A stretch of 64,000 nt of DNA from Octopus vulgaris (Eukaryota), in the NCBI GenBank assembly GCA_951406725.2, contig OX597826.1:73842001-73906000 (forward strand). The letters are read 5' to 3'. This document shows, one piece after another, positions 1,712-25,200 of the stretch. How positions within the stretch are numbered: position 1 is the stretch's first letter; each line of letters starts with the position of its first letter. The translations under genes were made by a program, and so were the position numbers. The notes beneath the pieces were generated by a model. It saw only the letters and a program-made list of their open reading frames with translations. It had not been told where the DNA came from and searched no databases.

Positions 1712-4261
1712 AAAACCACACACACACACACACACACAAAAATCACCATGTCTCTGTTTAGTGATCGTTTGAATTCTCCAAAGAATCTTAAAGAAGACGC
1801 ATACATACATTTTGTTTTCGTCAAACTACTTTGTGAGAGAGTTATTTTTGGGGTACCTTATTAACTGAACTGTGGTACATAAACAACATAAGTGAAATAT
1901 ACCAGTTTTCTTTCCAGTTGTGCAAACTATATAAAAAGTCCCCTGTTCAAACTACATCCATTTTACATGTCCTGCCCATTGTAGCTGCATGTTTTAGATC
2001 TTGCGACTACATGTTAATGAATCCATCATTCTGGAGCCACATTATGTTTGTGCATCCTATTACTGCCACGTGTTGTGCATGTGCAGACTTGTATTAGATG
2101 TTATGCATCCATCGATGCTGAGGGTGGTGGCCGACAACCACCTGTGTAGCAACACACACACACACAAGGGACGTAATTCGGTGTTTGTTACCTGGAAGAT
2201 GTTCTTTGTTGTGTTCTGGGAGATCTTTCTGTTTAATTCCTGTTACACATTTTTTTGAGAAGTGATTTCTTCCATTTTCCTAATCTGTCCAGTAAAAAGT
2301 AGATGTCTTACTTATGATAGCTGTCATATATAAATGTGTGTATGACTCAGTTTCAAGTACATCCTTCTCATTTAGAAATGTGTACCTGTATTTGAATGCG
2401 TTGCTGATAAATGTGGTTTACCTCAGTGTGAGCGAAAAATGCAACAAAATGACAGGATGGGGAAATGATATAACAGATAAAAGATGACTTGTTGCTGGTT
2501 TAAGTGTTGAATTCTACAGGCAAATAGGAAGGTAGGCGAATGGTTGGATCAGATCTATAGAATCGTACCAATGTGCAATATATATATATATAAACATACA
2601 CATATACGTAGTAAGCATTATTTATAGAAACTTAACCACAATGGACAAATGATTCCATCAGCCAAACTTGTATTCTGGTGCGAGTTGTAAACATGTAAAC
2701 ATTCTTGTGTATCATTAAGTAATTAGTGTTTATTTTTTGTTGTCGTTAATGACATAATTAAATTTCTGCTCATTATAAATATTTACTTGGGCGAAGATAC
2801 TCTACAGTGTATGGAAGAAGAATATATTTTCAGCTGTTAGAACTGTAGCCAGATTTGTTGGAATTTATCCAGATAGCTTTTTATCTAAATAGAAAACAGC
2901 CACACTCACACACGTACACATAGATTTACAGCGAATGTTTATAAACTTGAAATTTCATTAATTTTCTTATTTTTAGCTTGAACTTAGCCCTTTAATGCAC
3001 AGTGTTCCAGAAATCAGGCCTGTGAGAAAATTATACAATGCAAGCTAATATTGTGGAATGAAAATTCAATGTTACACATTAATTACTGGATGAATGGTCG
3101 GAACATCAGGTGTGATTGAATTTATAACATAACGCAGGTGTAGCTGTGAAGTAACTAGAGTAATATACCTCAGGTGTGACTGAGCTAACATCAGGTGTTA
3201 ATATATAATTGCTAGATAACACCATACTCAGATTAATTAATGTGAATTATTCAATGTTTCAGGCAGCTTTTGACCGAGTGGTGGTGATGATGATGGTGAT
3301 AGTAGATACAAACTCTTTAGAATAGTGGTGCTTAACCGTTTTAATATCCAGACCAGATCCAAAACAGATTTATTTTTTTAGGGGGACACACCAAAAAAAT
3401 GTAAAACAAGTCAATTAAAGAAATATTTATGGAGGGTAGACTTGAGGGTTGCAAGAGGCCCTGGGAGTCACAGTTAGTGTAGTTTTTATTTATTTATTTA
3501 TTTTTTTGTTTATGTCGGGAATCATTTTCATGTTGTTCCTTAATAGTATCATTATCATTGTACAATAACAGAGCAAAACTTCTCCAGGTATTATGTCTAG
3601 CAAGGCAGATTTCCATGTTGTTAACTCATCGTTTCTAAAAGATTTCATCATTTCAAGATAACAACAATGTATTAAATTATTCAAATGATAATGTCCAACC
3701 ACTGGACATTAATAAGGGGGAAATATTACCTTAATTGGTAACAGGTGAAGGTTGATGACAGGGAGGGAATCTGGCTGTGGAAACTATGCTTCAATAAACT
3801 CTGAATGATACAAGCATGAAAAAGTGGACATTAAAATGATGAGGATTATGCCAGGTACCCCCATCAACAGGTATTGATAATTCTAAATTCAAACAAATGA
3901 GATTTTCTAGGATTTTATCATGCATGGCCAGAACTGCTACAACAAGCATATCAAAGACTTTATTCGGCAAAACTCGTAAACATCACATTAATTATTGTTT
4001 CCGTCTTCATTAAATCAGATCACCGTCATCATTTAACTACTTCAAAATTCTTTTTTTTTTTTATTTAAATTTTTAGATAACTTTCATTTCTTCCTTCCTG
4101 TTCTTTCACTTTATATCTGTTTTCCATGCTAGCATGGGTTAGATTAATACTTATTGAGACTTAATTTCGCAGGCAGATGCCCTCCCCATTGCTAATCCTT
4201 AATTTTTTGTAAGAGTTAGCAAACAATTTGTTGATATTTCTACATAATCATTTAAAAAAAA

Positions 4262-4650
4262 CCCTTTTACTTGTTTCAGTCATACTGCGACCATGCTGGG
4301 GCAATGCCGTCAAGAAATTTAGTCAAATTGACCCCATTATTTATATCTTTTTTAAAACTTGGTACTTATTCTGTCAATCTCCTTTGCTGAACTGTTAAGT
4401 TATGGGAATGTAAACATACCAATACCAGTTGTCAGGTGGTGGTGGTGGTGGTGGAGACAAACAGATACAAAGACACATGCATATATATGTGTATATACAA
4501 TGGGCTTCCTTTAAGTTTACGTCTACCAAATCCACTCCCAAGGCTATGGTCAGACTGAGCCTATAACATGAAGACATTTGCCCAAGGTGCCATGCAGTAG
4601 GACTGAACCTGGAACCATTTGGTTGGGAGACAAACTTCTTTACCACACAA
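4262..4650 (-). mobile_element. SINE family B, older copy
   Basis: Diverged reverse complement of 33214-33613. Confidence 0.8.
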
Positions 4651-5064
4651 CACTTTTATCTGAAGAATGGAAAAATAACCATTCAAATTACATAAATGCA
4701 TATCTATACAACAGGCTTCCACACAGTTTCTGCCTACCAATTCCAGTAGAAGACACTTGCTCAAAGCACCATGCCATGTGATAGGACTTGAGATGACATT
4801 GTAAGAAAGCTACTTCCTTTCCCACACAGCTGTGTCTGTCCCTATCCTGTAAATAATTTATCATCTTTAGAATGGGAGGAAGGAATTTGCCCAAGGTGCC
4901 ACACAGTGGGACTGAACCTGGAACCATGTGGTTGGGAACCATTTAACTGTTTCTTCGTCTTGTACACGATTCATCTGCTATATGAGTGATGCCTAATGTT
5001 TTTAAAGTCTATCATCTTACCAATAAGAAATGGTTATAGCTATAATATTGTTGAATTTCATTAA

Positions 5065-5278
5065 CCTTTTAGCATTTAATCAAGCCAGATCTGACCAAAA
5101 TAGTCTCTCTGTTCCAATTTTTAAACTGGCTGGATCTGGCCTCTCATACTTACCCTACAATATTATTCCAAAAATAGAAAATCACATATTGAAATTGCAA
5201 AGCTACAAAGTAACACATGACTAATTATTATCAATGTGAATAAATTACATTTGACAGAAAAATCTGAATGCTAATGGG
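5065..5278. mobile_element. piggyBac-type MITE family 1
   Basis: TTAA-flanked, diverged CCCTTTAGC-type TIRs. Confidence 0.8.
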
Positions 5279-5291
5279 TTAATAATAATAA

Positions 5292-5512
5292 AGTGGCGAG
5301 CTGGCAGAAACATTAGCACGCCGGGCGAAATGCTAGGTGGTATTTCGTCTGCCGTTACGTTCTGAGTTCAAATTCCACCGAGGTCGACTTTGCCTTTTAT
5401 CCTTTCGGGGTCGATTAAATAAGTACCAGTTACTCACTGGGGTCGATAGAATCAACTTAATCCGTTTGTTTGTCCTCTCTGTGTTTAGCTCCTTGTGGGT
5501 AGTAAAGAAATA
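5292..5512 (+). mobile_element. tRNA-derived SINE family M (central GCCTTTCATCCTTTCGGGGTCGAT..AAGTACCAG, Meta/MESC-like domain)
   Basis: GGCGAGCTGGCAGAA head, GAGTTCAAATTCC B box; other copies at about 8150-8362(-), 16008-16222(+), 17150-17330(+). Domain name from memory. Confidence 0.85.
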
Positions 5513-5915
5513 AGGTTAATAATTTCCAGTTGTAACCAATTTCTGTCTGTCTGGCTCAACCTAATCCATTGTTCCTGATTTCCACTAGCTTATTATATGA
5601 GGTGCAATGTGGCCTTTTGGGCATCTTACTCTTTTTTTTTTCATTGTTCACTCTCCTCCTCGAATGCCTGCTGGTTCTATATTTATCGTAGGTGATGTGT
5701 ATCCTAACCCAGAATTTGACGCTATTAAGATTTGTACGTGTTTTATAAGAGGTAGCACCAGTAACATAAAGGTGTGATTGTGGCAGAATTGTTGTTGGTT
5801 GTATAAAGAAATATGTTTGAAGAAACTTGGGAATTAAAACTGAAACCCACTTTTAAGGTAGTTGGAACATTAATGCAAATGTTAGGACAAACTAGTCTGC
5901 TTGCCGGCAGTTTAA

Positions 5916-6132
5916 CCCTTTTGTTACCAACCTGGCTGAAACTGGCTCTGAGTACAAATGTCTTTTTGTTTTCATAAGTTTTGAATTAAAATCTTCCACC
6001 AAACCTTAGTCACAGTTTATGTTCCTAACACTAGCTGAATGATAACTGAGTTATTTTACTAAATTCTTTGTTATATTTAAAGTAATTGAAAGAAACACTG
6101 AACAGCTAAAAATAAATACGGTAACAAAAGGG
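5916..6132. mobile_element. piggyBac-type MITE family 2
   Basis: TTAA TSDs, 13-bp TIR CCCTTTTGTTACC/GGTAACAAAAGGG. Confidence 0.9.
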
Positions 6133-8925
6133 TTAAGCAAATTATAAGCTGTTTTATGCAAAGTTTATTTGAAATGCTTTGTTGTTGAGCTCTAATAGGA
6201 CAACATTGCTTTTGCTCAAAGTTCTTCTTTACTCAACACTGGTCTTATAGACCACTGTTGAGTAATGAAGGAGAATGGGTTGTGAGTAGTATCTGATTTT
6301 TAGGAATATGGAATTGTGTATATTGTGGTATTAATCATCGTTTAACATCCGTTCTCCATGCTAGCATGGGTTAGATGGTTCGACCGGGGATCTGGGAAGC
6401 CAGAAGGCTGCACCAGGCTCCAGTCTTATCTGGCAGTGTTTCTACAGCTGGATGCCCTTCCTAACGCCAACCACATAATTACAGAAGTGATTGGAAGACA
6501 GTGAAATGAAAAACAAATTAGTCTTTGTGTGAGATGTAATTAGGGTGTGCTATACATCAGTTGCTGTTTGTATATGAGATGTGTGCATATCTTAGAATGC
6601 AATGGAGATGTTGCATGGTATGAGACCAGAGTGATGTTAATCAAACCTGTCGTCTAATCAATAACTAGCACTATCTCCACAAACGGCCTTTATATGAGCC
6701 AGCGGTGGAGCCACTGCATTGTCATCTGACGTGCTAGGAATAGCCAAATCTTCTTCAAATCACATTCCATTATTTTAGAAAAAGGAAGGATTCATTAGAT
6801 AATATCAGAATAAAAAGTTTTAGATATGCTTGTTGTAGCAGTTCTGGCCATGATAAACCATATAAAATCTCATTTGTTTGGATTTAGTATTTCCAGTACC
6901 TGTTAATAGAATATCTCGCATACTCATCAGTTTAACGTCCACTTTTTCATGCTTGCATGGATCAGACAAAATTTATTGAATCATGTTTTCCACAGCCAGA
7001 TTCCCTTCCTGTCGTCAACCCTCACCTGTTCCCAATTAAGGTAAATATTTCCCCATAGCCAGACATGTTTTTGCAGAATATTGAATATTGGGGACGAACC
7101 CTACTGCTTGTATGCCAGTGACTCTCATTTACAACTATATAACACGATGTCAAGAATGGGAGATACAAACATACACTCACACACACGTGATGGGCTTCTT
7201 TCAGTTTCCATCTACCTGGTCCTCCCAAGGCTTTGCTCAACCCAGAGCTATAGTAGAAGACACTTGTGCAAGGTACATGCAGTGCATCTGAACCTGAAAC
7301 CATGTGGTTGAAACACAAACTGTTTAATCACCCAGCCACATCTGTGTTTACCATAATCTGAGAATTGGTCTTTAAGAGAGAATTGCAGCTGATTGCATTG
7401 ACTTCTCTTGGGTTTCCTTTTCTTTATTAATCTGCCATTTTACTGACATTGTCTCCCACCTTAGAACATGGGCCTATAGTTGCAAACATTCAAAGTGTTG
7501 CACACACACACACATGCACTTTCTCTCTCTCTCTGTAAATTTCAGAGACTGTAAGACCACTTACAATCATCATCATCATCATCATCATTCAATGTCCCCA
7601 TTCCCACATGGAAAAAATGGAGGTTGAAACAGTGGTGGTGATGCTCCATGTTTGCATGGGTCAGATTGAATTTGTTGAGGAAGATTTTCTACAGCTTTGT
7701 CCCCTTCCTGTTGCTAACTCTTACCTGTTTACAAGCAAAGTAATATTTCTTTATGACCAGACATGTTTTTCATGAAACAAATATTGTTTGTATGATGATA
7801 CTGATGATGCTCATTTACAACCATTGCATGATGTTAAGACAAGGACACATACATGCACACGATAGGCTTCTTTCAGTTTCTGTCTACCAAATCCACTCTA
7901 ACTTGTCTTCAATTGTCCTGAGGCTATATTATCAACGTTTGGTGTTTGTTTTCCATGCTGTCATGGGTTGGATGGTTTGACAGGAGCTGGCAAGGTCAGG
8001 GGCTGCACCAAGTTTCATAGTCTTGTTTTGGCATGGTTTCTATGGCTGCCAAGGTGTTGCCCTGTGGGATTGAACCCAAGGCTACATGACTTGGAAGCAA
8101 GTTTCTTATCTGCATGGCTGTGTCTGTCCCTACAATCTGCTTTAATAATGATCCTTTCTACTATAGACAAAGGCCTGGAATTTGGCGAAATGGGACCAGT
8201 CGATTACATCGACCCCCAGTGACTGGCTGGTGCTTCATTTATCAACCCCGAAAGGATGAGAGGCAAAGTTGACCTAAGTGGAATTTGAACTCAGAACATA
8301 AAGGACAAAATCCTGCCAAGCATTTTGCCCTGTATGATAATGATTCTGCCAGCTCGCCACCTTTCTACTTTAATGCTAATAATAATAATAATAACAATGG
8401 TTTCTTATTGTGGCACATGGCTTTAAATTTTTGGGGAAGGGTTGGTCACTCATATCAACTTGAGTTCTTAACTAGTCTTTCGTTTTATCAACCTTGGAAA
8501 AATGAACAACAAACAGCTGAACTTGGTGGGATTTGAACTCAGAATGCAAAGAGCCAAAACAAATAATAATGCTCTAACAATTCTGCCAGCACGACTTCTT
8601 TATTGACACACTCTTCTAGTTAAAAAATCTCCCTTCAGCAAATAAATCAAGTATGATTCTAAACTTTCTGAATGGTTTTGGTGAGAAGATAATTTTGCAT
8701 CTGTGTATGCATATGTGGAAGTTTCAAGATGTACATCTGTTATTTGAGTGGCTCATTCAATTAATGACCTCATTATTCCACTTGATTTTCTTGACAGTAA
8801 AGTGATTTATAGAGATGCAGTTTTCATCTGATTCTGCCGTTTTTATGATGGTGCAATACTATCAGTAATCCAATATGTAACATATAAACGTGGCAAAAAT
8901 AAACGAATGGTTCTTTTTTTTTTTT

Positions 8926-9317
8926 CTTTTACTTGTTTCAGTCATTTGACTGCGGCCATGCTGGAGCACCACCTTTAGTCGAGCAAATCGACCCCGGGAC
9001 TTATTCTTTGTAAGCCCAGTACTTATTCTATTGGTCTCTTTTTGCCGAGCCGCTAAGTGACGGGGACGTAAACACACCAGCATCGGTTGTCAAGCAATGC
9101 TAGGGGGACAAATACAGACACACAAACACACACACACACACATATATATATATACATATATACGACAGGCTTCTTTCAGTTTCCGTCTACCAAATCCACT
9201 CACAAGGCATTGGTCGGTCCGGGGCTATAGCAGAAGACACTTGCCCAAGATGCCACGCAGTGGGACTGAACCTGGAACCATGTGGTTTGTAAGCAAGCTA
9301 CTTACCACACAGCCACT
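8926..9317 (-). mobile_element. SINE family B
   Basis: Near-identical reverse complement of 33214-33613. Confidence 0.9.
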
Positions 9318-9732
9318 GCATATTATTGTTCCAAATATACTGAATGACGTTCTTCTGTTGTAAAATTAGTAATTCATCTTCAGATTACTGCTACTTAGTG
9401 TTTATCTTTCCTGGAAATGTTGCTCTTCCTGTTTATCTTCCCATTAAAACATCAAAGTTTCCTAAAGTAGGATTTTTAAAAGCAGTTTCTATTTTATGTT
9501 AATAATCTCCCAGCTGCCCTAGTTACTGTTGTTGAGCTTCAGTTCACACCCTGGATCAGATAGTTTTATGATCAAATACATTCTCAGAGGCTTGACCATC
9601 TTGTTACATGGTAGGCATATGTCAAAAACAGCATCTAGCATGTCTTTTTCTCAATTAAAATGGTAGGGAGGATTAGGCTGTTATTTCAAGCAGGTTGATG
9701 CTTCCTTAGGTGTATATAACACATTTAAAAAT

Positions 9733-9932
9733 GCAGCACGGAGTTTTGTCAGTGAACAGGTTGCGGTCTCAAAGCGACGAAAATATTTTGACAAATTAAA
9801 TTTGAATGTTGAAGTGAATCTAACGGTTTTTGTGTGTTTCTTAAATGGCTTATAAACACCTTCCACGCTGCAATTGTTTTCGTTCCAGCACACGCTCCCA
9901 GATCAGGTCACTTGCTATGCAAGTACATCTCC
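9733..9932 (+). mobile_element. Probable Penelope-derived short element carrying the G3:C8 hammerhead
   Basis: CpG-richer 200-bp island starting at the hammerhead and ending in the ACTTGC-TAT-GCAAGT hairpin; boundaries approximate, no clear TSD. Confidence 0.45.
9745..9795 (+). ncRNA. Minimal type I hammerhead ribozyme, G3:C8 core variant
   Basis: Stem I TTTGTCA/TGACAAA; core GTGAACA+G; stem II GTTGC/GCGAC; GAA; palindromic stem III AATATT; U17. Confidence 0.75.
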
Positions 9933-10019
9933 AAATTATTTTTTGTTTAATCTAAAAAGTTGTCTCCTTGGCCTGTGCAGCTTCTCCCCAACAGACTTGT
10001 GAGTAATGTAGTTACAATT

Positions 10020-10330
10020 CCTCTTGAATATTTACCATTTCATGGCCGCAGGAAATACGAGTATGAGAGGAATTCCAGGAAGCTGGGGCTCTTGAGGAAG
10101 CACTGAATACAGTGGTTAATGCTGGGTGTGAAGTAATAAACATTAGTTGAAGAGGAGTGATGACACAAGTTGCTCTTAGTGGAAGTGTAGTGGTAGGGAA
10201 AGAAGAGAGAGGAGACAGAATGTTTGTGGATCAGACATTAGAGTATGTTGTTGGTAAATGACTTTGTTACAATCAAGTGGGGCTTTTTTTGATATACAGT
10301 CAAGGATATTTGTATGCAGAGCTGCAAAAC
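10020..10330 (-). mobile_element. Possible CR1/L2-type LINE 3' remnant
   Basis: Degenerate minus-strand sequence resembling the SF.PR...WNSL...FP end of ORF2. Confidence 0.35.
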
Positions 10331-10363
10331 CATTTTTCATGAGGGAACAATATTCCATTGGGA

Positions 10364-10744
10364 TACTCTTTTACTCTCTCTTGTACTTGTTTCAGTCATT
10401 TGACTGCGGCCATGCGGAAGCACCACCTTTAGTCGAGCAAATCGACCCCGGGACTTATTCTTTGTAAGCCCAGTACTTATTCTATCGGTCTCTATTGCTA
10501 AGTGATGGGGACGTAAACACACCAGCATCGGTTGTCAAGCAATGCTAGGGGGACAAACACACACACACATATACATATATACGACAGGCTTCTTTCAGTT
10601 TCCGTCTACCAAATCCACTCACAAGGCATTGGTCGGCCCGGGGCTATAGCAGAAGACACTTGCCCAAGATGCCACGCAGTGGGACTGAACCCGCAACCAT
10701 GTGGTTGGTTAGCAAGCTACTTACCACACAGCCACTCCTGCGCC
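10364..10744 (-). mobile_element. SINE family B
   Basis: Near-identical reverse complement of 33214-33613. Confidence 0.9.
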
Positions 10745-11548
10745 TAGAGGATAAGAGGGTTTAAAAAATTTTTTTTTCTGAAATATTTTCTGACTCTGAA
10801 GAGGGAGGCCAAGCTTTACTATGCAGGTGTGTAATGACAGAGAGAAAGAGAGAGAGAGATGTTCAGTGATGATGGGGTTTGACATTTGTAGTGGTTTCGA
10901 GGGTTCCAGCTGCTTGTTTCTTATAAGTGGGTGACAAAATTGTTTTCATGATATATGTTGTAACTTGGAAGTCTTCTGGATTGAAATACTGTTTGTCTGA
11001 TATTGTTATGTACACTTGAGAGAATATCCAAAGTATATCTTTTATGGTTTTTAAAAATTTTTTTATACTTGTTTCAGTCATTAGACTGTGGTCATGCTGG
11101 GGCAATTTCTTGAAAAAATTTTTTCGTTGAACAAATCAACCCCATTACTTAATTTTTCAAAGCCTGGTACTTATTCCATCAGTGTCTTTTGCCAAATCGC
11201 TAAGTCGTGGGGACATAAACACCAATACTGGTTGTCAAGTGGTGGTAGGGGGACAATGACATACACACATGGGCTTCCTTTCAGTTTCCATCTACCAAGT
11301 CCACTCACAAAGCTTTGGTTGTTTCAAGGCTATAGTAGACGACATTTGCCCAAGGTGCCACAGAGTGGGACTGAACCTGGAACCATGTGGTTGGGAACCA
11401 GGTTTGTAAAGGAATTGAAAAGATCTGCTTGTGAACAAATGGTGAATATTACTAGAAATGTCAGAAAAGATTGGATGGGAAGGATTCTGAAAAGTCTTTA
11501 ATCAGTGATGTTGTTGAAGCCCCAGGTCATCTTTCATTGTCTCTAGAT

Positions 11549-12030
11549 CAGTGGTTCCCAACCTTTTCACTTCCAAGGACCCCTTTTATTTAAATGAGTT
11601 TTCCCATGGACTTCTTTCAATATGTTTATCCTTATGTGTGTGTATTCTTTTTTTACTTATATTTGTTTGTCATTTTACAACGGCCATGCTGGAGCACTGC
11701 CTTTAGTCGAACAAAATGACCCCAGGATTTATTCTTTGTAAGCCTAGCACTTATACTATCGGTCTCTTTTGCCGAATGTCTAAGTCATGGGGACATAAAC
11801 ACACCAGCATCGGTTGTCAAATGATGGTGCGGGGACAAACACAGACACAAGCATACACACACACATACATGACAAGCTTCTTTCAGTTTCCGTCTACTAA
11901 ATCAACTCACAAGGCTTTGGTTGGCCTGAGGAGATAGTAGAAGACACTTATCCAAGGTGACACGCAGTGTGACTGAACCTGCAACCATGTGGTTGGTAAT
12001 CAAGCTACTTACCACATGGCCACTCCTGCG

Positions 12031-12085
<55 letters not shown>

Positions 12086-12235
12086 TCATCATCATCATCA
12101 TCATCGTTTAACATCTGCTTTCCATGCTAGCATGGGTTGGACGATTTTGACTGAGGGCTGGCGAACCAGATGGCTGCACCAGGCTCCAATCTTGATCTGG
12201 CAGAGTTTCTACAGCCGGATGCCCTTCCTAACGAG

Positions 12236-12267
<32 letters not shown>

Positions 12268-12333
12268 GAAATTTTGAATTTAGTTCATGGACCCCCAGTA
12301 CTACCTTTGCAGACCCCAGGTAGGGAACCACTG
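11549..12333. mobile_element. hAT (Charlie/Buster-like) MITE with nested SINEs
   Basis: TSD CTCTAGAT/GTCTAGAT, TIR CAGTGGTTCCC/GGGAACCACTG. Confidence 0.85.
12033..12105. repeat. (TA)n followed by (TCA)n microsatellite
   Basis: Direct reading. Confidence 0.95.
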
Positions 12334-12961
12334 GTCTAGATCTATGATCATAAATATTCCATCTGTTACAGTTTGTCTTTTTTTCTTCTTGAAACACAAA
12401 TGGATCACAATATCCAATATGCCTTCCTTTTAAGACATTTTAAACTTTTTACATATTCCATCAAAGCCTTTAATTTTTTTACATATAAAATACAGAAGCA
12501 AATTCTTCATAGGCTTATGGAATATTTATGTTATTGAATTTTTATTTCCCTCTTATACTATATAATTGTCAACAATAGTTGGGACTACACCATAGATCTT
12601 ATATTAAGGTTAGCTGATATTTTTAGCATCTCATGTGTCCACATAGTCTCTTTCATTGGTTTCGGTATATTAAAAGAATTATAGGCTATGGTGCTACAAT
12701 TGTCTGAATCATATCTTTCTCTTATACTGATGGTCAGTTATAATTTAATGGTGGACAAATTCTTTGTGCTCGTTAATTAAGCAATCCTCTTTCATTCTAA
12801 GAATTACAGTTTGCAGTGTATTTTTAATTGTCCTACCTAATGTTTAATTACTTATTAGTTTTATAGGTTTGCTTCTCTACATTCTGTCAGTATTTCGTCT
12901 TCATATTTAACTTCTTCTAAATCACTGTGTTCCCTCTTCTACAAAGTAACCAGTGCCTTAA

Positions 12962-13179
12962 CCCTTTCATTACCAACCCGGGCGAAACCAACTCTGGCTG
13001 AGTACAAATGTCTTATTTTCATAAGTTTTGAATTAAAATCTTCCACCAAACCTTAGACACAATTTGTTCTCCTAACACTAGCTTAACGATAACTCAGTTA
13101 TTTTACTAAATTCTTTGTTATATTTAAAGTATTTGATAGAAACAGAGAGGATCTCAAAATAAATACGGTAACGAATGGG
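12962..13179. mobile_element. piggyBac-type MITE family 2
   Basis: TTAA TSDs; colinear with 5916-6132. Confidence 0.88.
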
Positions 13180-14446
13180 TTAAGTCATCTGTTGTTACAA
13201 ACATTTCAAAATGCCCTTTGTTTCTTTTTGAAGCTCAAGTGATTTTTCCTTCACCTAGGGACATAATCAAGAGTGTTCTGGTTGATTTCATTAGTGTTGG
13301 CAGTGAGCATCCAACTGGCTTCCGTGCCAGTGGCACGTAAAAGGGCACCATTTGAGCGTGATCATTACCAACGTTGCCTTACTGGCACCTGTGCTGGTGG
13401 CATGTGTAAAAGGATTCGAGCGAGGTCATTGCCAGTACCGCCTGACTGGCCCCCGTGTTGGTGGCATGTAAAAAGCACCCACTACACTCTCGGAGTGGTT
13501 GGTGTTAGGAAGGGCATCCAGCTTTAGAAACTCTGCCAGATCAAGATTGGAGCCTGGTGCAGCCATCTGGTAAACATCTAGTGTTGCGAAGAAAATGATG
13601 ACGGCAATATTAAACCAAGAAGAAAGTTGGTGGAATGTTGGATGCATTCAGTTGATGCGAGGGGTAGAAAGCCTGATGTTTCAGACTTGTGCCGTGAGCA
13701 GAGAGTGGAAGATTACAAAAGTATCGTTTAGTTGGCCAGCACTGATAAGAAATGATCTTCTGCTGTCTGATAATGGGTTGGAACCTGAGACATTCAACTT
13801 TCTATTCCTCAAGGCAATTGAATTTACTAAAAGAGGTAGGGCATCCAGCCGTAGAAACATTGCCAGATTAGACTGGGCCTGGTGCAGCCTTCTGGCTTCC
13901 CAGACCCCAGTTGAACCGTCCAACCCATGCCAGCATGGAAAGCGGATGCTAAACGATGATGATGATGTGAATGAGTACTTTCGTTATTAGCAGTTAATTG
14001 TGAAAGTGAGGCTAAGTTGTGTGATTGTTTATTTTTAGAATGACAATTTTTAGGGTAAGCCTGAGAGGCTGGATCTGGCCGTTTGAACATAAAACAGGTA
14101 GAATATTTGGACCAAATATAGTAAGTTTAAATGCTAAAGGGTTAAAGAACTATCTCTCAGTCATCATCATCATCAAACATTTGTTTTCCATGCTGGCATG
14201 AGTTGGAGAGCTTGAATGGAGCTGGCCAGCCAGAGAGCTGCATCGGTTTCCATCTTTCTGTTTTGGCATGGTTTCTATTTCTTAATGCCAATCACTCTAC
14301 AGAGTGCACTCAGTGCTTTTCATGTGGCACCAGCATGGGTGCTTTATATGTGACCACTAGTATGGATGCTTTCTACATGGAACCAGCACCCACAAGCTCC
14401 ATGGCATTTAAACAATAATAATACATTAGAAAACTAAACCTTACAT

Positions 14447-14647
14447 CAGTGCTTTTCAAACTTTTTGCTGGAGCGGAACCCCAAGGAAACATTCCACTGG
14501 CTCACGGAACCCCTGTGCAATAATTTAATAGTCTTATGCACACCTATCTGCACAGGAGAATTAAAAATTACTGCCGATTTTAGCAGTTTTGTAAGTTCTT
14601 GCGGAACCTCTGGACTGTGCTGGCAGAACCCTGGTTGAAAACCACTG
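14447..14647. mobile_element. hAT MITE
   Basis: Perfect 8-bp TSD CCTTACAT; TIR CAGTGCTTTTCAA/TTGAAAACCACTG. Confidence 0.92.
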
Positions 14648-16640
14648 CCTTACATATAGGAGAACATGGAATTGGAAACAATGAAAAGTTCATATAATGC
14701 ACTCCTCAAGATGATGTGAGTTTTGAACTGATGCTGGTGATAATAATATAACTTACTTTATACAATTTACTGATCTCAGCAGTTAACTAATTTTATCTTC
14801 TTCAAATTCTAATGTTCTGGCTTTTGTTTTATAAAAGATAAAAATATAAATATCATTCATTGTCAAACATAAAATATCCAATCTGTTTCAAGATGCAAAA
14901 CCTCATAAAGTAGATGACAAGGAAAGGAAAAACAACAAAAGATCTGGATTCAGCCTCTGCAAACATAGGCAGAATGAATGTGAAATGATGATGTAATTAT
15001 ATTTGTTGATGAAATCATCAATTATGTATAAAGTGTGCACATGCACATAAATGATTAATTTGTATAACAGCTAAATCAAGGGTGTCAGATTTCTTTGTCT
15101 TTGCAGGCTGGATTGAAGCATAAATAAGACTGTATGGGTTGGGTAGAGACAATTATTCCTCAAAGATCCTATTCGTAATCTAGGCCAAAATAAATAGGCA
15201 TAGGGGCCGATGTGAAATAATAAATTTATTAGCAGTAAATGAATGAAAGAAAGAAAGAGGTGTTAGCAAAGTTTATATGCAGAGATGTACAGGGACAAAT
15301 TTATCGACTGGTGTAATATATATTGGCCTGTTTAGTCTTTAGGGCAGTGGTTCTTCTCTCAAGGATACATGTGGCCCTCAAGCATCCTTCCAACAGCCCT
15401 TGATGGTCTTCCCTCTTATTATCATCATTTAATGTCCATTTTCCATGCTGACATAGGTTGGATAGTTTGGCAAGTGCTGACCAACTGAAGGGCTGTTCAG
15501 GCACCATGTCTGTTTTGGCATGGTTTCTACAGCTGGATGCCCTTCTTAACACCAACCACTTTTCAGAGTGTACTGGCTGCTTTACACAGCACTGGCATGG
15601 GCTTTTTTTGCCCGGCACCAGCACTCACGAGTCTGCAAGATTAAAGATGCTCAGCTGGAGAGGGTTGCAGGAGCAACCTCACTTTTACTTAGCTTGACAT
15701 GTCTTTTCAAGCACAGCAAACCACCAGGAGGAGTCTTGGTCCCCTGTCATCCTCCCCACTCTAAGTCCCAATATAATAAATTTTAACCTTGATTGACTTG
15801 TGTTTTACTTTTTTGGGGGTGTAGTCTCTAAAAACATCCAGGTTTTGGATCTGGCCTGGATATAGAAAAGTTTAAGGAACACTGCTTTAGAGTGTGAATG
15901 GAAATAGAGATTTTGGAAATGAATTCATACAGATCTTGAGAAAACCATTGATTGATAGAAAACTTGCACTGTTTCAGCTGCAAATCTTTTCAGTATCATT
16001 CCTATTAAGGCAGTGAACTGGCAGAAATGTTAGCATGCCAGGCAAAATGCTTAGCAGTATTTCGTCTATCTTTACGTTCCGAGTTCAAATTCTGCCGAGG
16101 TCAACTTTGCCTTTCATCCTTTCAAGGTCGATAAATTAAGTACCAGTTGCATACAGGGGTCGATCTAATCGACTGGTCCCCTCCTCAACAATTTCAAGCC
16201 TTGTGCCTAGGATAGAAAAGAATATCATTCATATTACTAAAACCCATTTGGACAAATGTATGTGTAAATTAGGAAACAATGATATTTTTGGGGGCTTGGT
16301 GTGTACATAGACAAAATGAAGGGAAATAGGACACATCTTTTAGTAAATGGATTTATAAGTTTTTTTTTTATTGGATGAGATAAATGATTCACTGAGGTGT
16401 ATTGTTCTGACTAATTGGGACTGGTTGTTACTGTACTTGATAGAATATTTAAGAAATTAAAATAAATTTTTTTACAAGATTGTTGTTGCTGAGCTAGATC
16501 ATCTTTAAGAGATTGGGACAAAGCAGTTTGATCTGCTCCCAGCGGTTTGAAACTACTAAACATTCACTTCTGAACTGTATGGTTTTAGAAAATTACTTTG
16601 TAAATCTCACAACGAAAGATATTCAGCAACAGTACTTTGG

Positions 16641-16873
16641 AGTAAAGATTGTTTGCCAACATAACATGGTAGTCCTGGTTCAGGACGAATGTTGCTATAA
16701 TTTAGCCCCGGGAGACATCGTCTCCAGCTGGCTGTACGATTCCCTTGTTCGAAAATATAAGGATACAGATCGTGTTATATAGCCATCTGGAGACAATGTC
16801 TCCTGGGGCTAAATTACAGCAACATTCATCCTAAACCAGGACTGCCATGTTATGTTGGCAAACAATCTGTACT
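16641..16873. mobile_element. Foldback MITE with ~95-bp inverted arms
   Basis: 16641-16736 is the reverse complement of 16778-16873; right end ...ACTG TA is pogo/Tigger-like. Confidence 0.8.
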
Positions 16874-19221
16874 GTATAGTTTTAGTTTGACATATAGAAA
16901 TACAAAGTGAAGATTATTGAGGAAATTTTCTGCCTTGTTTTTAAAATGCCAGACATTGCCAATGGATAGATTTATTCTGCTTTTTTCTTCAGTTTTAAAT
17001 ATTCTTTTGTTTATCTGAGTATTTGACTAACCCTTTTCTTATATTTCTGTTGAAATACATTATCTTTCAATGAATTTGAAAATAATGATAAAGTTAGTAT
17101 GTAAAATAGCCTTGTCATTATTAAACCTGAGTTTAGAATTAAAATCAATGCTGGGCAAAATGTTTAATGGCGTTTCATCTGTCTTTATGTTCTGAGTTCA
17201 AATTCTGCTGAGGTCAACTCTGCCTTTCATGCTTTCAGGGTTGATAAAATAAGTACCAGTTGAGTACTAGGTTGGGGTAATTGACTGACACCCACCTTCT
17301 AACTTGCTGGCTTTGTTCCACAGTTTGAAACCAATAATGGAAGGTAGATTAGTTTAAGAAAAAAGTGTGATACAAACTTTTTAAAAGTTTAAAAGGTTTT
17401 TGTATCACAGAACTAAGAGCATTTTCAGGTGGGTTGGTATCGAAAAGGTTAATAAAGGAAAAAATGTTAATTTGAAGATACAGAAATATTCTATAAGCAT
17501 GCAGTAATTATGTATCATTTAAAAGTTTATCAAGTATCCACATACTGAAATAATACTGTTACATTAACTAAATTTTACCTAATTATTGCAGTTAATTTTA
17601 AAAAATCAAATATTTGTAGAGGGTTAGTAAAAAAAGAAACTGCTGGTGTTTGGAAAATAAATCCAAAATGAACAGTTTTGTATCATAGTCCAGGTACAGT
17701 TTCAGTAGGATGATGTCAAAAGGGTTTCATAGTTACTTGGATGTCTGGACATACAGTGATATGCTTTCTTTAGGGATCGATTTCTTTTAGTGTCATCATC
17801 TGATATAAACCTAATTTGTTTTACTTAGTATCTTAGTAAAAATTCATCCCAAGGCTTCTGATACTATAAATCCTCTTTGTTTGGCATGTATTTGATATAA
17901 ACGAACTGTTTGCAGCCGCCATAATGTCCATATTTCTATGCTTGCGTGGCTCAGACAGAATTCAGATTTTTCTGTTGCCAGATAACCATCTTCTTGCAGA
18001 AGATTGAAAACAAAGGACACTGCTTGTATTGCAATGATGCTCAAACTGTTGTGTGACGTCAAGACATGTACACACAAATGCAAATATAACCACATGCATA
18101 CACATGTGGTCTTCTTTCAGTTTTTGCCTACCAAATCCATTCAAAAGGATTTAGTTGGCTTCGGCCACACATAATAGAAAGTACTTACTTACCCAAAGTG
18201 CTGTACAGGATCACTGATCTTGAGACTACATATTAGGATGTGAACTCCTTCAACACACAGCTATTCCTGTGCCTCGTATCATCATCGTTTAACGTCCGTT
18301 TTCCGTGCTAGCAAGGGTTGGACAGTTCAACCGGGGTCTGGGAAGCCAGGAGGCTGCACCAGGCTCCAGTCTGATCTGGCAGTGTTTCTACAGCTGGATG
18401 CCCTTCCTAACGCCAACCACTCCATGAGTGTAGTGGGTGCTTTTTACCTGCCACCGGCACAGGTGCCAGGGGAGTCTGGCAGTGGCCACGATCAGTTGGT
18501 GCTTTTTATGAATTAAAAAATTAATCTCTGGTGGATAAATTCACTGCATTTCAAGCTGCATTATAACAACCATTTTATCATTTCTTCCATTTCATCTGAT
18601 CATTTGAAGTGTGTATTGAGATAGCCCCACTTCTGTATAATTTCTTTACACACTAATCCTTCCTCACAGCTATTAAATCGTCAGTCACCAAGGTTTTTTT
18701 CTTAAGATTATCATTGTTGAAACAACACTCAATATTTAGTTACTGAACATTGAATTTTACATGATTTAATCAAACTGTTCTGAGAAGTAGTTCCATAATT
18801 TACCCCACAAAATAGTATATGACATATATATATTTGTTTAAATAATCTAGCCATCTCCGAACAGCTTGCTCACTGAATCCAACTTAATACTTAAAAAAAA
18901 AAAAGCCCATTAATGTAATGAAAGTATTGTTAAAACTGTTAAATTTTTTATATTTAACAGCTTCGTTGACAGGTAATGCAATAAACCATTAAGTTTTTCA
19001 TTTAAAAAAAAAATCATGTTTTCATCTCTCAAAGCAAGCACACATGCACATGAAGAGACATGCATGCATGTATGCACACACATGCAAGTGAGTACACATG
19101 CACATAGTTATTCAATTCTTTTCCTTTCTCTCTCCAGGTGTTATCCGTCTCCATGGTTGGACTGTGGATAACATAGATTCTTACATTAACAACTTCAAGT
19201 ACTTCTAACTAGTACTTAAAG

Positions 19222-19233
19222 ATGTCAACTGCT
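19222..19233 (+). CDS. ATRX: ATRX coding exon 1 (MSTA); exon spans 19138-19233 including 5' UTR
   Basis: Strong acceptor ttcctttctctctccag|19138, aagATG with in-frame upstream stops, donor gct|gtaagt; phase 0 fits the next exon. Confidence 0.6.
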
Positions 19234-22200
19234 GTAAGTATCTTTTAGAATTGTTTCTCACACTCTTGCATTGTCTCCAGTGCTTCCAAAGATTTTCTTA
19301 CTAACATCTATTAATGGCTAACTTTCAGTTCAGTGAGTTGTTAATTCCATTCTGGCTTTATAAAATATGTCTTCAGTTATTCCAAATCACTTGGAACGAT
19401 TTTCTTAATGGTACTGAAAATTTGTGCAGAGAGAGAGAGAGAGAACTTTATAGGCTTTAAGTATTGGTGTTTTGCATGGTTGTCAGGAAAACAACTTCAG
19501 CATTAATCAGTAAAAAAAAGTCTGTTTGTGATACAATATGGTGAAAGTTTGTTCGTTAGTCTGTTAATATGATTTTTTTTCCTATATAAATACTTTTGAT
19601 AAGAACTAAACCACATCTTTAAAGCACAACGATATTTTAGTTTTAGGATAGCATGTTGACTGAACATTAAAGTATTTTTTAGTTAAATTTTAGTCACATG
19701 TCTACTCAATAATAACTACAATAAAACTAACAAAGGCTTTTAAAATTAGGAAAGCATAGCAAAATCACCCTGTGGTGACTAGTGATGGTAAATAGAGGAT
19801 GGTAGTGAGATTTTAATAGAAATATTTTGAAGGTTCTTTTTACTTTTCCTTACATTTTACAATATTGGATGGTTTCTAAAATGGTCCCTCTATTATACAC
19901 TTCGGTACAAATAAATTTAACATTAAGAAATTTCATTATGAATTTTTATGCACATCTAATGTGGCAATATTGTTTTGGTACAACACTAAACCCTGCCATT
20001 TTGTCTAGAGTCCACTGTTGACCAAACTCATCACTTCTCATTGCATTATATTTATGTTTTAACACTTCTGTTAGCTGTTGAGTTCCTCATCCCAAACTTG
20101 AAGTGAAACAATGGGTTGTTATTAGTGTGAAATGCCTTCCACAATTTAGTTTGTAATTGTTTTAATAAATGTTATTTAAGATGTAGCATAAGATTCATGA
20201 TCTGAGAACTTGTTGTTTTCTATAATGTTTTATAGTCTAACCCATGCTAGCATGGAAAGCGGATGCTAAACGATGATGATGATGATAGTGAGGGAAATAA
20301 ACTTTATCCTTGCTGGTTTCATTGAGCAAATGTTTTTACATTTTAATTTACCTATACCTTTAATATCCATGTGGTTGTTTCTATTTTAATAGAAAATATA
20401 GTTTTTCTTAGTTTTATTTAATGATCAGTAAGTCTTATCCAAGTGATTTCTTAAGAAAATGTTTTGCTCATACCAATATACCTTATTTTATGAAAAACTT
20501 TTGGCTAATAGTATTGCCTGCAATTAACTGAGACTTGTGCTGGCGTTCTGATTATCAGTAGACTTCACTGTTGATAGTTTGGTAGTTATAAACTATGTCT
20601 TATCTCTAAGTATATTGAAATTTTTTCACGGTTCCCCTTATCTCTTTCAGAAATATTTTGAAATGTTGAATTTTATTCTTCTTTCACCAATTCTCCTGAA
20701 CACTTTTCCAAGAAACAATACTTTGATTCTATTTCTTCAGCAGGTTTTTTTCCTGCTCCTTTTTCCTGATATTCCTGTGGTTTAGAATCTATTTCTTTCT
20801 TTATTCCTAGAATATCTGTGGTTCTACTTGGACTAATTGGTTCATGGTTTTACAAAAATAAATTAATATTTAAAAAAAAAATAGTTTGAGACCCCTTATT
20901 AGTGATGAGTAATATGCATATTTTCTCTTCTGGAATAATTTTTTGGTTAAACAATCCATTTGCTTCTATTGTTACGTATAATTTCTTTAGTATTAACGTT
21001 TTCTTCTTCATATTTCTTCCCTTTCTCACCTACTAACTATTTTAGTTCTTCTATTTCTTCACTTCTTTTGGTCTTTTTCACTGTTTGGAACTTCTAATCC
21101 TAATATATTGTTTCCTTTTTACTTTTTTAGAGTACGAGTAAAGATCGGAAAGGCACCTCTAGGAGGTAATTTGATTTCCTCATTCTTGCTCCCTTCTCTA
21201 AATGTCTAATTCCCAGTTCTCACAATCCCATCCTTTGCTTTGTCATTCACGACCTAAGTGTACCTTATCTCGTGAAGCATTTCTTCCAGTTTACCTCTGA
21301 AACCCCTAATCTCTCATTGTTATTATTGTTCAGGCAAAAAACTTATCCAAATTCTATTAATGATTGTTATCAACAATTAACAAGAATAGTATATTTTTAT
21401 AATAAATTATCTAGTCTATGAGTTATATCTACATATTTGACATCACATATCCTAAGTTGCTTGTATAGCTACATCAAAATAATATGCCGAGAGTATCTTT
21501 TTATATTCTCTCTCTACCACAATGTTATTATAGGGTTGAAAATTAAGACAATTAGATTTTTAAAAAAAAGAAAAAAGCTATTACTCGCTCATATCAGTTA
21601 ATAACATAAAAACTATTTTTTTTATCTGCTATCTCATTTTTTAAAATTATGTTTTCTTGAATAATGGCAGTAGAAGAAGTTTCTTGAACAATGGTAGTAG
21701 AAGATGAATATCATACTGTTTGCTCTTTAACCCTTTAGTGTTCACATCATTCTGCCAAAACTAATTCTTTTTTATCCACATTGTTTTGAACTAATCATGC
21801 ATTATCTTGTAGCTATGAAATTTTGATGAGGTAGCTGTTAATTTTTAAAACGATATAGTAGGGTTGGTCTGAGAGACCAGATCTGGCCAGTTTGAACATA
21901 AAACAAGCAGAATACTTTTGGCTGGATATGGCCAGTTTAAATGCTAAAGGGTTAAACAAGAGCTTCCCTTTGATTGTTGGTTTTTGAAATCTTAATGTTA
22001 AATTCCAAGTTCTTCTCTTTTGAAACTCATACATGAAATCTGATTGCCATTGTAAAATCAAGAACTTGCTCTATGTATGTTTGAGAACATAAATTGAATA
22101 AACTGAAAGTGAACATCAATTATTCCTTTTTGTAGCTTAAATATCACAGATTAAATACATGTAGTTATGGTAAAGTATCTGTATGAACTTGTATATAAAT

Positions 22201-25200
22201 ATTGTTAGACTAAATGTATCTGTATTTTATGCACAAGTACTGGTCTGCAGTAAGCTTATTTTATTAGAAGTTGTGTATATAATTTCTTTTATGCTTAGCA
22301 TGTAAATATGCTATTTAGATTGATGACTTGCTGAGACACAAATAATACAGCATGTACACTATAAATGTAAATTTATCATCATCATCATCGTTTAACGTCC
22401 GTTTTCCATGCTAGCATGGGTTGGACGGTTCGACCAGGGTCTGGGAAGCCAGGAGGCTGCACCAGGCTCCAGTCTGGTCTGGCAGTGTTTCTACAGCTGG
22501 ATGCCCTTCCTAACGCCAACCACTTCGTGAGTGTAGTGGGTGCTTTTTACGTGTCACCGACACAGACGCCAGTCAGGCGGCACTGGCAACTGCCACGTTC
22601 GGATGGTGCTTTTAACGTGTCACCGGCACGAGTATCTTAACAACAATTTCCATTTGATTTTCATTTTGATGTTGGTGTTAACGTACTTGACTCAATAGGT
22701 CTCCGTAAATTTATTTACCAACATCAAACTGTTAAATTTTGTGTGATGAAAATGAATGTTGAGAACTAAGTTACAATTAAGAGAGACTTTTAAACAAAGT
22801 AGTCGGAAGAAATTATAAGAACTTCCTAAAGATGGAGAAGGTTGGAGAGAAGCCATGTTACATCCAATTTCTGTCAGCTTGATGGATACGTGTTGGTGAT
22901 CACTTGAGACAATATGTCCATTTTCTATTTTACAATTTGTAATTAATATCAATGTAATTAAGACCAAAGCAGCTGTTTAACCCTTTAGTGTTCGGATTAC
23001 TCTGTTAAATGTAATGCTTTTTTATTTAAATTGTTTTGAATTAATCATGCATTACCTTATAGCTTTGAGGTTTCAATGATGTGATTGTTTATTTTTAGAA
23101 TGTCAATGTAGGTTAGGTGTGAGAGGCTAGATATGGCCAGTTTGAATATAAAACATGTAGAATATATTGGGCCGGATTTGGCCAGTTTAAACACAAAAGG
23201 GTTAATACACTCTTAGCTAGAATTCACATGTATAGAGTTGCATGTTGTATTTATTTCTTCTTCATGAACAACTTTGTATATAAAGGCACAATATTGTTTA
23301 TTTCCAGTAATTGTTCTTCTCTGGATAAGAAACCACTGGCTAATCGAAAGTCACAGGCATCATCGTCTGCAGAAGAATCTGGAGGAGATTCCAGTGCAGA
23401 ATTAGATGCTGCAGGGAGTACAAAAGATTCAGAAGCTTCCAGGGAGCCAGAGTTGAATCCGGAAGATAGTGATGACGAACGTTGTCGTTCACATTCACCT
23501 GAAGGTAAACTTACTTACTAATGCCACTAAATTGCACCTTACACTTTGTTCTTCCAATGCTGATTACCTGTATATCTTATACAGGTAATCTTATACAAAT
23601 GTTAATATATTTCACTTGTTTCACTCACTTCTGTCTGAGTTCTAGAAGATGCATTACTTTTCTTCTTCATAATATTTTTTTGGCTTTGTTGCAGGTTCGC
23701 TCGGAAAATCCAATCCACTTGATGCAATCAAAAACTCAGAAATACCTTCTAAACGCCGAAGTAGTCTGAAATCATCTTGTAAGTACTGTTATTCTTAGAC
23801 AAAAGTTTGTTACAGTAAAAACGAGGATTTAGTCTCAAGTCCCTTTTCTCTCTCTCTGCATATAATGTGTCTCACAATATCGACCAGACTGTTGGATGTT
23901 CTAGTTTTAGCTTTTGAACGATGACATCCTGCTGGCTAGGGGAGCTGGCCAGTAGTCTCCCTGACCGGAGGGGTAACCTTTTTACAGCTGAGTGGACTGA
24001 AGCAACAGGAAATGAAGTGTTTTACACAAGTACACACCATGTTGCTTGTCTGGGAATCGAACCCACGATGTAGTGATTGTGAGTGCAATGCCCTAACCAC
24101 TAGGCCATGCACTTTACACACACAGAATAAAATTCCTGTTTGCAAATTCTTTGTCTGAGGGTTTATTCAACCAGACTGATTGAAATAAACTGTCGGGTGA
24201 AACAGATCCCCCCCCCCACCATTTAACCTGGATTTTACAACAGATTTTCTATTCTCAGTATTGAGCTCTCCAATCTGTAAATATTTGGTTGTTATTCTTA
24301 AATTTGGTGTAAAATAAGAACTTCAATCTAATGCACACACACACACACAAACAAAAGTAGATATTGTTAGAGGACAGGTCATTCTGACTCATCAAAGTAT
24401 GATAAATAAATGAAATAATAGGTAGATCCTGTTTTATCTAATATAGCGGAAAAAAAAAAAAAACTGGGAAGTACAAGGTAATTATCTTGGCAGACATTAT
24501 TACATGATTAACTTTAAATGGGGTCTTCTCAGTGGGCCTTGTTTTTTTTCTCTTGTAATTGAGCCAATATTATTTCACTTAAATGATCCACCATATGCAG
24601 GATTCTTTACCTCTTCAGGGTGGGAAGCAAACCTAATTATTAAAACCCACTTGCATATGTATTTTCATGTTTAATGAAAGATTCTTCACACAGTATTACA
24701 GTATTTAGGACAAGGAAACAACACAAACAAACATGATGCTAAATGTTTCAGCTTATTAAGCTGCTCCCTAATTGACGCTTTATTCGTCATCATCATATAT
24801 CTGTTTTCCATACAATGTGTACTGGTTGCTTTTTAGAATGCACCATCACCATCATGGTCACCAAATATACTACCAATATATTTCTAATTTAAACTGAAAC
24901 GAGCTCTACATTCTGTAATCTTTGAATAAAAGTGATTTCTGTAAAAAAAAAACATTATATTACATATCCCCATTTGTGTTTTAACATAATTTCTCCATGC
25001 TAGAATGGGTTGGGTGGGTCTACTTAATTCATTATATTTTAACTGAATTCAGTATCCTGTGTTTTCTGGCATACAAGTTGACAGTATACAGTGTAAAAAT
25101 ATCCTATAAACATTCAAACATCGTCATTATCTTTCCAAATCCTGCCGCATTTCACATGGAATGTTTGATCCTCAAAAATCGTCTTGGGGTATCAGCTGAC

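Follow-up and report, generated by a model that had tools for sequence, protein, structure and literature searches.

The locus considered here raises the question of what a hammerhead-like motif with an exchanged core base pair is doing near the exons of a protein-coding gene in Octopus vulgaris. The sequence analysed, referred to as the window, is a stretch of 64,000 nucleotides. An original prediction placed an intact-looking hammerhead at 9745-9795, in which the C3:G8 pair of the core is replaced by G3:C8; it was said to lie on the sense strand of the ATRX gene and to cleave itself probably only as a dimer. The evidence assembled below gives good grounds for regarding the motif as the hammerhead of the pseudo-LTR (pLTR) of an octopus Penelope-like element (PLE), and the copy at ATRX as a likely product of reverse transcription of the first ~200 bases of a capped, uncut RNA. 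The parts of this copy are the following.

9731..9932, + strand: short pseudo-LTR copy of a Penelope-like element, with shared limits, beginning at the likely transcription start and ending at the second 3' end site
9731..9744, + strand: 14-nt leader, which differs between subfamilies; 45 of 100 sampled 5' ends cluster at 9729-9732
9745..9751, + strand: hammerhead stem I, 5' strand, from a base-for-base check
9752..9758, + strand: core strand, with G3 (9752) and C8 (9757) replacing C3 and G8; 29 of 29 motifs behind parent ORF ends are G3:C8
9759..9759, + strand: additional base separating A9 from stem II, as is typical of minimal PLE hammerheads (PMC4209133)
9760..9778, + strand: stem II (5 bp, G10.1-C11.1) and 9-nt loop II; most subfamily differences are in the loop
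9779..9788, + strand: G12-A13-A14, the palindrome AAUAUU (A15.1 to U16.1) and U17, with the predicted cut 3' of 9788
9789..9795, + strand: 3' strand of hammerhead stem I; 14 of 66 copies have A9791G, which preserves a U-G pair
9845..9932, + strand: opening 29 codons of the reading frame of the element, with a likely start ATG at 9845, continuing into the reverse transcriptase (RT)/endonuclease ORF in the tandem element L299
9872..9881, + strand: first 3' end site of the family, likely an internal reverse-transcription start, used in 46 of 100 copies
9927..9932, + strand: second 3' end site of the family, the one used in the ATRX copy; 52 of 100 copies end at 9927-9935

The layout claimed for the motif is borne out base for base. 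Stem I (9745-9751/9789-9795) consists of seven Watson-Crick pairs and is followed by GUGAACA (9752-9758) and the extra G (9759); stem II pairs 9760-9764 with 9774-9778 and includes one G-U, and GAA (9779-9781), the palindrome AAUAUU (9782-9787) and U17 (9788) complete the strand. Apart from the 3:8 swap the invariant core is all there, and each of its bases (U4, G5, A6, A9, G12, A13, A14, A15.1, U16.1 and H17) is found in at least 64 of the 66 copies that span the motif. The literal C3 and G8 of the textbook core are missing, the motif having G3 and C8, which form a Watson-Crick G:C pair. A three-way junction is formed by stems I and II together with helix III, which is palindromic and dimer-forming and has a weak duplex, and 9745-9795 is supported as a minimal type I hammerhead motif of the PLE type.

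A descriptor that accepts any Watson-Crick 3:8 pair, and requires at least three pairs in stem II, a perfect palindrome and at least five pairs in stem I, matches 9745-9795 only, on both strands of the 64-kb window, and 0 of 200 dinucleotide shuffles contain a site. The minimum-energy fold includes stems I and II, and no extra stability was found for it relative to shuffles (z -0.29). Rfam returned no match for the motif at gathering scores and, at E up to 10, a single snoRNA match near the motif that is at chance level. Two details concern the individual pairs: 9780-9789 form a longer palindrome of 10 nt, with A14-U17 pairing possible too, and the G-U of stem II is a CpG-type change present in nine of the 66 copies, most of which have C-G.

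The motif is part of a repeat with thousands of relatives. The 202-bp copy in the window is 89.6% identical over its whole length to both pLTRs of the tandem element L299; it is without the upstream promoter region and retains only 29 codons of the ORF. At five of its 202 positions it carries a base found in less than 20% of sampled copies, and these private changes have the appearance of neutral decay. When the octopus's own 2.8-Gb genome was searched at the DNA level, 1,677 candidates resulted, of which 40 were scored, the top ones at 92-98% identity. By exact pattern, the 5' half of the motif has 5,726 genome matches and a word 50 nt downstream of the motif has 9,937, the reversed-pattern control giving 0 in each case. 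The bare G3:C8 core descriptor has 8,895 matches against 692 in its reversed control, which leaves about 8,200 core-complete copies above background genome-wide. The family has a density of about one copy per 300 kb, with the strands equally represented.

As a sample free of selection on the hammerhead, the first 100 matches of the downstream word were taken; all of them lie within the first 31 Mb of one contig. The 3' ends of 98 of the 100 fall at two sites, 9872-9881 (46 copies) and 9927-9935 (52 copies), and between these, inside the start of the ORF, lies an optional PLE 'tail' of about 55 nt. An inverted copy is found directly upstream of 63 of the 100, and the copies usually run into TA-rich flanks. 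The two 3' end sites, the inverted copies and the TA-rich flanks are Penelope-like signatures (PMC8557442, PMC11167929). Only 40 of the 66 spanning copies have the core, stems and palindrome all intact.

Several other repeats were encountered along the way. SINE-like repeats with very high contig depth lie either side of the motif, at 8970-9320 and 10400-10600 of the window. The apparent tandems L267 and L268 were rejected, as these are segmental duplications (3.5 kb and 2.6 kb), each carrying a copy of the family. An older hairpin-shaped repeat with 281 candidates (L080, L068 and L071 near 1500, and L161-L180) has in its variable centre a CUGAUGA-like word beside a stem that resembles stem I of the family, and may be a decayed hammerhead element or a chance likeness.

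The parent element is visible in the copies that extend upstream, which comprise three of the 100 sampled and 465 exact matches genome-wide. These long copies continue into an ORF with an RT (YVDD) and, at its C-terminal end, a GIY-YIG endonuclease; by tying the motif to this ORF, they put its identity as a PLE pLTR hammerhead to the test, and it holds. The locus L297 contains a 1,025-residue open frame with YVDD and with GIY-YIG above the Pfam cut-off. Pfam RVT_1 gave no score on this frame, and the RT is assigned from motifs and relatives. The parent thus has an RT followed by GIY-YIG with CCHH in one ORF, the arrangement of PLEs with a C-terminal endonuclease (EN+), and a linker of the CX2-5CxxC type, CX3CxxC in the parent, precedes the endonuclease. 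L299 has the tandem order pLTR-ORF-pLTR, its pLTR being in frame with the ORF, although a stop interrupts this copy further along; tandem pLTRs are thus present as well as the inverted ones (63/100). Given the first in-frame ATG at 9845, the two 3' end sites are near positions +30 and +88 of the ORF.

At the other end of the ORF, the motif occurs 938-1,232 nt 3' of the stop at 29 of 33 ORF ends, a count in which positions 3 and 8 were left free and two places were entered twice. All 29 are G3:C8, and the remaining four, without a readable motif, are shortened, mutated or extend beyond the locus. Many ORF copies have identical scores, so that the family was recently active with the swapped core. 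The nearest named protein in the database carries the label Octopus vulgaris, and over its C-terminal part it matches the genome at 100%. Identity to the other linker-bearing family of the same genome is only 21%; going by motifs rather than by placement among named references, the parent looks like Nematis and the other family like Neptune.

Two other sources for the repeat were considered and rejected. The first parent candidate was the most abundant GIY-YIG family, with frames of 781 residues, which has no sequence in common with the repeat and carries a U3:A8 motif of its own, found in 20 of 30 loci. This family (L111-L120 and L085-L110, e.g., G000:C16:20835300-20840300) is abundant and has a long repeat-rich 3' region; 3' of its U3:A8 hammerhead there is an optional tail of ~37 nt, followed by (TA)n targets. 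The ORF upstream in L052/L271 belongs to another family, which has been invaded by a long copy.

The exchange at positions 3 and 8 had been taken for a compensatory one, and the family supports this, as well as its being inherited. G3 is present in 64 and C8 in 62 of the 66 copies, and a Watson-Crick 3:8 pair is found in all six readable motifs of the clade, in three forms (G:C, C:G and U:A). The prediction had also looked for covariation among genomic copies; inside the family this expectation fails, the covariation at 3:8 being between families. Double changes at 3 and 8 number 32 (3 in a control) and comprise nine A:U, 10 U:G, two C:G, one U:A and 10 unpaired combinations. There is no C3:G8 subfamily, since both C:G matches are unrelated sequence. 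The remaining double changes are read as decay, from which the U:G excess stands apart; U3 and G8 occur together in L062, L067, L070, L073 and L074, above the expectation from two transversions.

Between families the pair has taken other forms. The same genome contains a sister family with 55% amino-acid identity to the parent, the two grouping at support 100 in a quick, unfinished tree. In this family 29 of 30 matches show a homologous motif, in which C3:G8 is accompanied by a compensatory pair in stem II. Its hammerhead has C9 and an imperfect palindrome; as the family is young and abundant in spite of this, the textbook core is not needed for spread. The loci L405-L412 (e.g., G000:C17:6329500-6338500) contain many near-identical tandem pLTR-ORF-pLTR copies of the sister family, whose open frames of ~1,312 residues include an asparagine-rich insert. 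Among the 10 closest metagenome loci, L338 and L343 have C3:G8 and L339 and L340, these two read by eye, have U3:A8; five have no readable motif, and L337 is too irregular to count. The U3:A8 cores of these PLE relatives are at L339:2496-2550 and at L340:21-75 and 3431-3485, and L339 has C9 as well, the second case of A9C in the clade. A strict scan of 68 metagenome loci found a sense-strand motif in 33, many of them redundant, and all with C3:G8. Since the sister has C3:G8 and the relatives have C3:G8 or U3:A8, G3:C8 is likely to be the derived state.

Within the family, common variants are unevenly distributed. They occur at 12 of 69 positions in the leader, loop and downstream sequence, versus 0 of 39 structure-breaking in the stems, core and palindrome (Fisher p 0.004, or 0.03 if the stem I change that keeps a U-G pair is counted), in a test that counts linked loop changes as independent and draws on 100 copies from the first 31 Mb of one contig. 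The 11 core positions have no common variant among the 66 spanning copies.

Many of these properties have counterparts in known systems. The minimal type I hammerheads of metazoan PLEs (PMC4209133) are alike in their type I layout, the extra base after position 9, G10.1-C11.1, the palindromic helix III, the location in the pLTR, the mostly solo genomic copies and the predicted dimer. Their consensus is CUGANGAH with a stem I of 4-5 bp, whereas the octopus family has G3:C8 and a stem I of 7 bp. A natural 3:8 covariant, U3-A8, is described in the same paper (PMC4209133), and a search of its supplement file 2 showed no G3-C8 and no Octopus entry.

The Poseidon element PAc of Anolis (PMC11167929) is similar in that its RT starts at two internal sites near the beginning of the ORF, which define a tail, and in its AT-rich targets, the hammerhead upstream, uncut RNA as the main template and the absence of reads ending at the cut. 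It differs in its natural C3:G8, with G3:C8 made only as an engineered partial rescue, in an ORF that starts inside the hammerhead rather than 56 nt past the cut, and in a tail of 30-40 nt rather than ~55 nt; the octopus ORF has the CX3CxxC linker, whereas PAc's clade is without it according to PMC8557442. The Neptune and Nematis elements (PMC8557442) share the RT, the CX2-5CxxC linker, GIY-YIG with CCHH, tandem and inverted insertions, TA-rich targets and a hammerhead near the 3' end. Studies of 3:8 variants (Perreault et al. 2011, PMC3088659; PMC3884650; PMC8495972) agree that the exchange is tolerated, G8C being partly rescued by C3G, but in the available parts of these papers the natural covariant is U3-A8 and G3-C8 appears only as a laboratory mutant.

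The relation to ATRX has to be considered separately. The first exons of the gene are placed by splice joints in contigs.

19135-19233, 21131-21163 and 23306-23506, + strand: first listed spliced ATRX exons, from contig splice joints

Two exon frames match ATRX structures (E 4e-29 and 3e-21); Pfam did not recognise single ATRX exons. The exon at 21131-21163 is only 33 nt long. Three contigs carry 149-172 further 5' bases, and no joint falls in 3600-19135 among the joints listed. CpG depletion and a T-over-A skew begin just upstream of the window, and the first exon of ATRX is likely to lie upstream of the window's start region. The CpG depletion there and the lack of a listed joint in 3600-19135 would put the motif in the first intron of ATRX, which is its likely position. 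The claim of sense orientation therefore stands insofar as ATRX is on the + strand, while the inclusion of 9745 in the ATRX transcript is deduced. Beyond position, no link with the gene is supported, as the motif is part of a retroelement fragment that is present thousands of times in the genome. No second copy of the family was found in the window or in the 20 kb upstream, the nearest piece being without the 5' core strand, and the ATRX copy is without the element's promoter region. The lone copy is likely inert and its place in ATRX incidental.

How such short copies arise can be read from their 5' ends. Sixty-nine distinct copies have an intact 9731 start; four are long, and 65 stop at 9731. 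At least two upstream parent bases are shared by 35 of the 65, and the next base is G in 23 of the 35, at a place where the parent reads C or T (p 4.5e-7 against an expectation of 0.25; the G content of the flanks is 16%). An untemplated G is the expected trace of a reverse transcriptase copying the cap, as is established for other retroelements, and the extra G at the 5' ends of the family is likely a copied cap. The short copies would then span the distance from cap to priming site, which appears likely from their ends. A TATA-like run lies 30 nt upstream of the main start in the long copies, but says little by itself because it adjoins TA-rich repeats; TATA and an initiator in a pLTR have a precedent in PMC3846280. 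At the predicted cut (9787-9791) none of the 100 sampled copies has its 5' end, which argues that the templates were uncut and the whole hammerhead retained. Eight of the 100 5' ends are at 9794-9798, just 3' of stem I, and may reflect stalling of RT at the folded hammerhead or an artefact of the AT-rich palindrome; they are given no weight here.

As monomers, minimal PLE hammerheads show no activity, and as dimers they are weak (PMC4209133). The engineered double mutant C3G/G8C brings about a partial rescue of hammerheads, among them one from a PLE that depends on its protein (PMC11167929). The expectation that the octopus motif would cleave only as a dimer is sound as regards the monomer, which cannot form helix III, the closing of A15.1-U16.1 costing 5.4 kcal/mol. 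As regards the dimer, the self-duplex of AAUAUU is worth -0.2 kcal/mol, versus -4.6 for the palindrome of another PLE family of the same genome. U17 may help by avoiding a G3-C17 mispair, such as is hinted at in PMC3884650. The longer palindrome at 9780-9789, with its alternative A14-U17 pair, and the lack of a cut footprint among the copies also speak against cutting. Measurable cleavage by the family is slightly favoured, and the hammerhead-shaped RNA likely cuts only slowly, if at all.

A possible life cycle can be outlined from these observations. Transcription would start at 9729-9731, with the TATA-like run 30 nt upstream in long copies, and the RT protein would nick AT-rich DNA and begin copying at ORF +30 or +88. 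Copying on the 5' pLTR would reach the cap after 150-205 nt and so give the abundant short copies, single or in head-to-head pairs, while copying begun on the 3' pLTR of a tandem transcript would give ORF-bearing copies. In a tandem transcript, the two hammerheads are predicted to pair via AAUAUU and to cut slowly, probably only with the protein of the element. Such a cut would take away either the cap or the priming site downstream, and its role would thus be that of a brake or a late step in processing, not that of forming the ends of insertions.

Parts of this scheme can be read differently. The boundary at 9731 might be a 3' splice site instead of a transcription start, the short copies then deriving from spliced RNA with a first exon ending AG/GAG, in the manner of the Drosophila virilis Penelope intron that ends at helix I. 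In the long copies 9731 is indeed directly preceded by a branch-like CUAAC, a pyrimidine tract and CAG, and such an arrangement has precedents (PMC4209133, PMC8557442). However, no plausible upstream exon is carried by any of the 65 short copies: a spliced footprint was sought, and none has upstream parent sequence ending at GT beyond eight bases, save for a pair of TA-repeat matches 10 bases long. The extra G is also found after three, five and six matched bases, as would be expected of several capped starts but not of a single exon end. Splicing is an improbable source of the boundary, and a capped start is preferred. Less probable still is a role in the host gene, with the ATRX copy as an active ribozyme acting on the gene through cuts in its pre-mRNA. 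Its sense orientation, intact core and stems and probable intronic position would all permit this, but it is one of thousands of copies spread evenly over both strands, has no partner in the window or in the 20 kb upstream, cannot fold helix III as a monomer, and has private changes of the kind left by neutral decay.

The family as a whole might, alternatively, descend from a hammerhead that has ceased to be catalytic, its fold or sequence being kept for protein binding, translation control or as a core promoter. This would agree with the absence of starts at the cut (0/100), with a helix III almost without stability, with the C9 and broken palindrome of the sister family, and with hammerhead mutants of the anole element, which were without effect on insertion in vitro (PMC11167929). 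Against it, positions 3 and 8 have changed together and are still paired, in three forms across the clade; C3-G8 is part of the active hammerhead core (PMC3088659), and keeping the pair suggests that an active fold is selected; the 11 core positions have no common variants. Loss of catalysis is thus unlikely on balance, though it deserves to be taken seriously. Hardly any credence can be given to the 202-bp unit being an independent non-coding retrozyme or SINE that replicates via a hammerhead-cut circle. The unit is short, abundant and hammerhead-bearing, and animal retrozymes have been proposed to derive from PLE pLTRs (10.64898/2026.07.22.740005), yet head-to-tail arrays of the short unit are absent among the sampled loci, its ends are the start site and sites inside the ORF and not the cut site, and it is continuous with the parent ORF. 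The retrozyme reading is thereby largely refuted, and a pLTR fragment copied from PLE RNA is the preferred origin of the unit.

Small PLE-associated hammerhead variants that cleave as dimers were reportedly described by Lunse, Weinberg and Breaker in 2017, and by its title that work concerns the same reduced-stem-III class. In a search of the literature for a natural G3:C8 hammerhead, all cases that came up were engineered; the search covered neither Lunse et al. 2017 nor one of the supplement files of PMC4209133, either of which could hold a natural one. Minimal PLE hammerheads and the natural U3-A8 covariant have already been published (PMC4209133, PMC3088659). It is tentatively proposed that the octopus family may be the first natural active G3:C8 family. 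The 3:8 pair would have moved freely between C:G, U:A and G:C in a slow, protein-gated brake on the element's own RNA, and the cap-to-priming-site copies would record uncut templates and the transcription start to the base.

The role of the hammerhead in Penelope-like elements is an open question (PMC8557442, PMC11167929). The octopus family offers a natural version of the classic laboratory double mutant, with near-intact tandem parents, and a young sister family with the usual C3:G8 pair is available for comparison. Its extra 5' G and the lack of starts at the cut support in vivo what the anole element showed in vitro (PMC11167929). Standard descriptors, which require CUGANGA, miss all G3:C8 copies, and genomic hammerhead counts are therefore underestimates.
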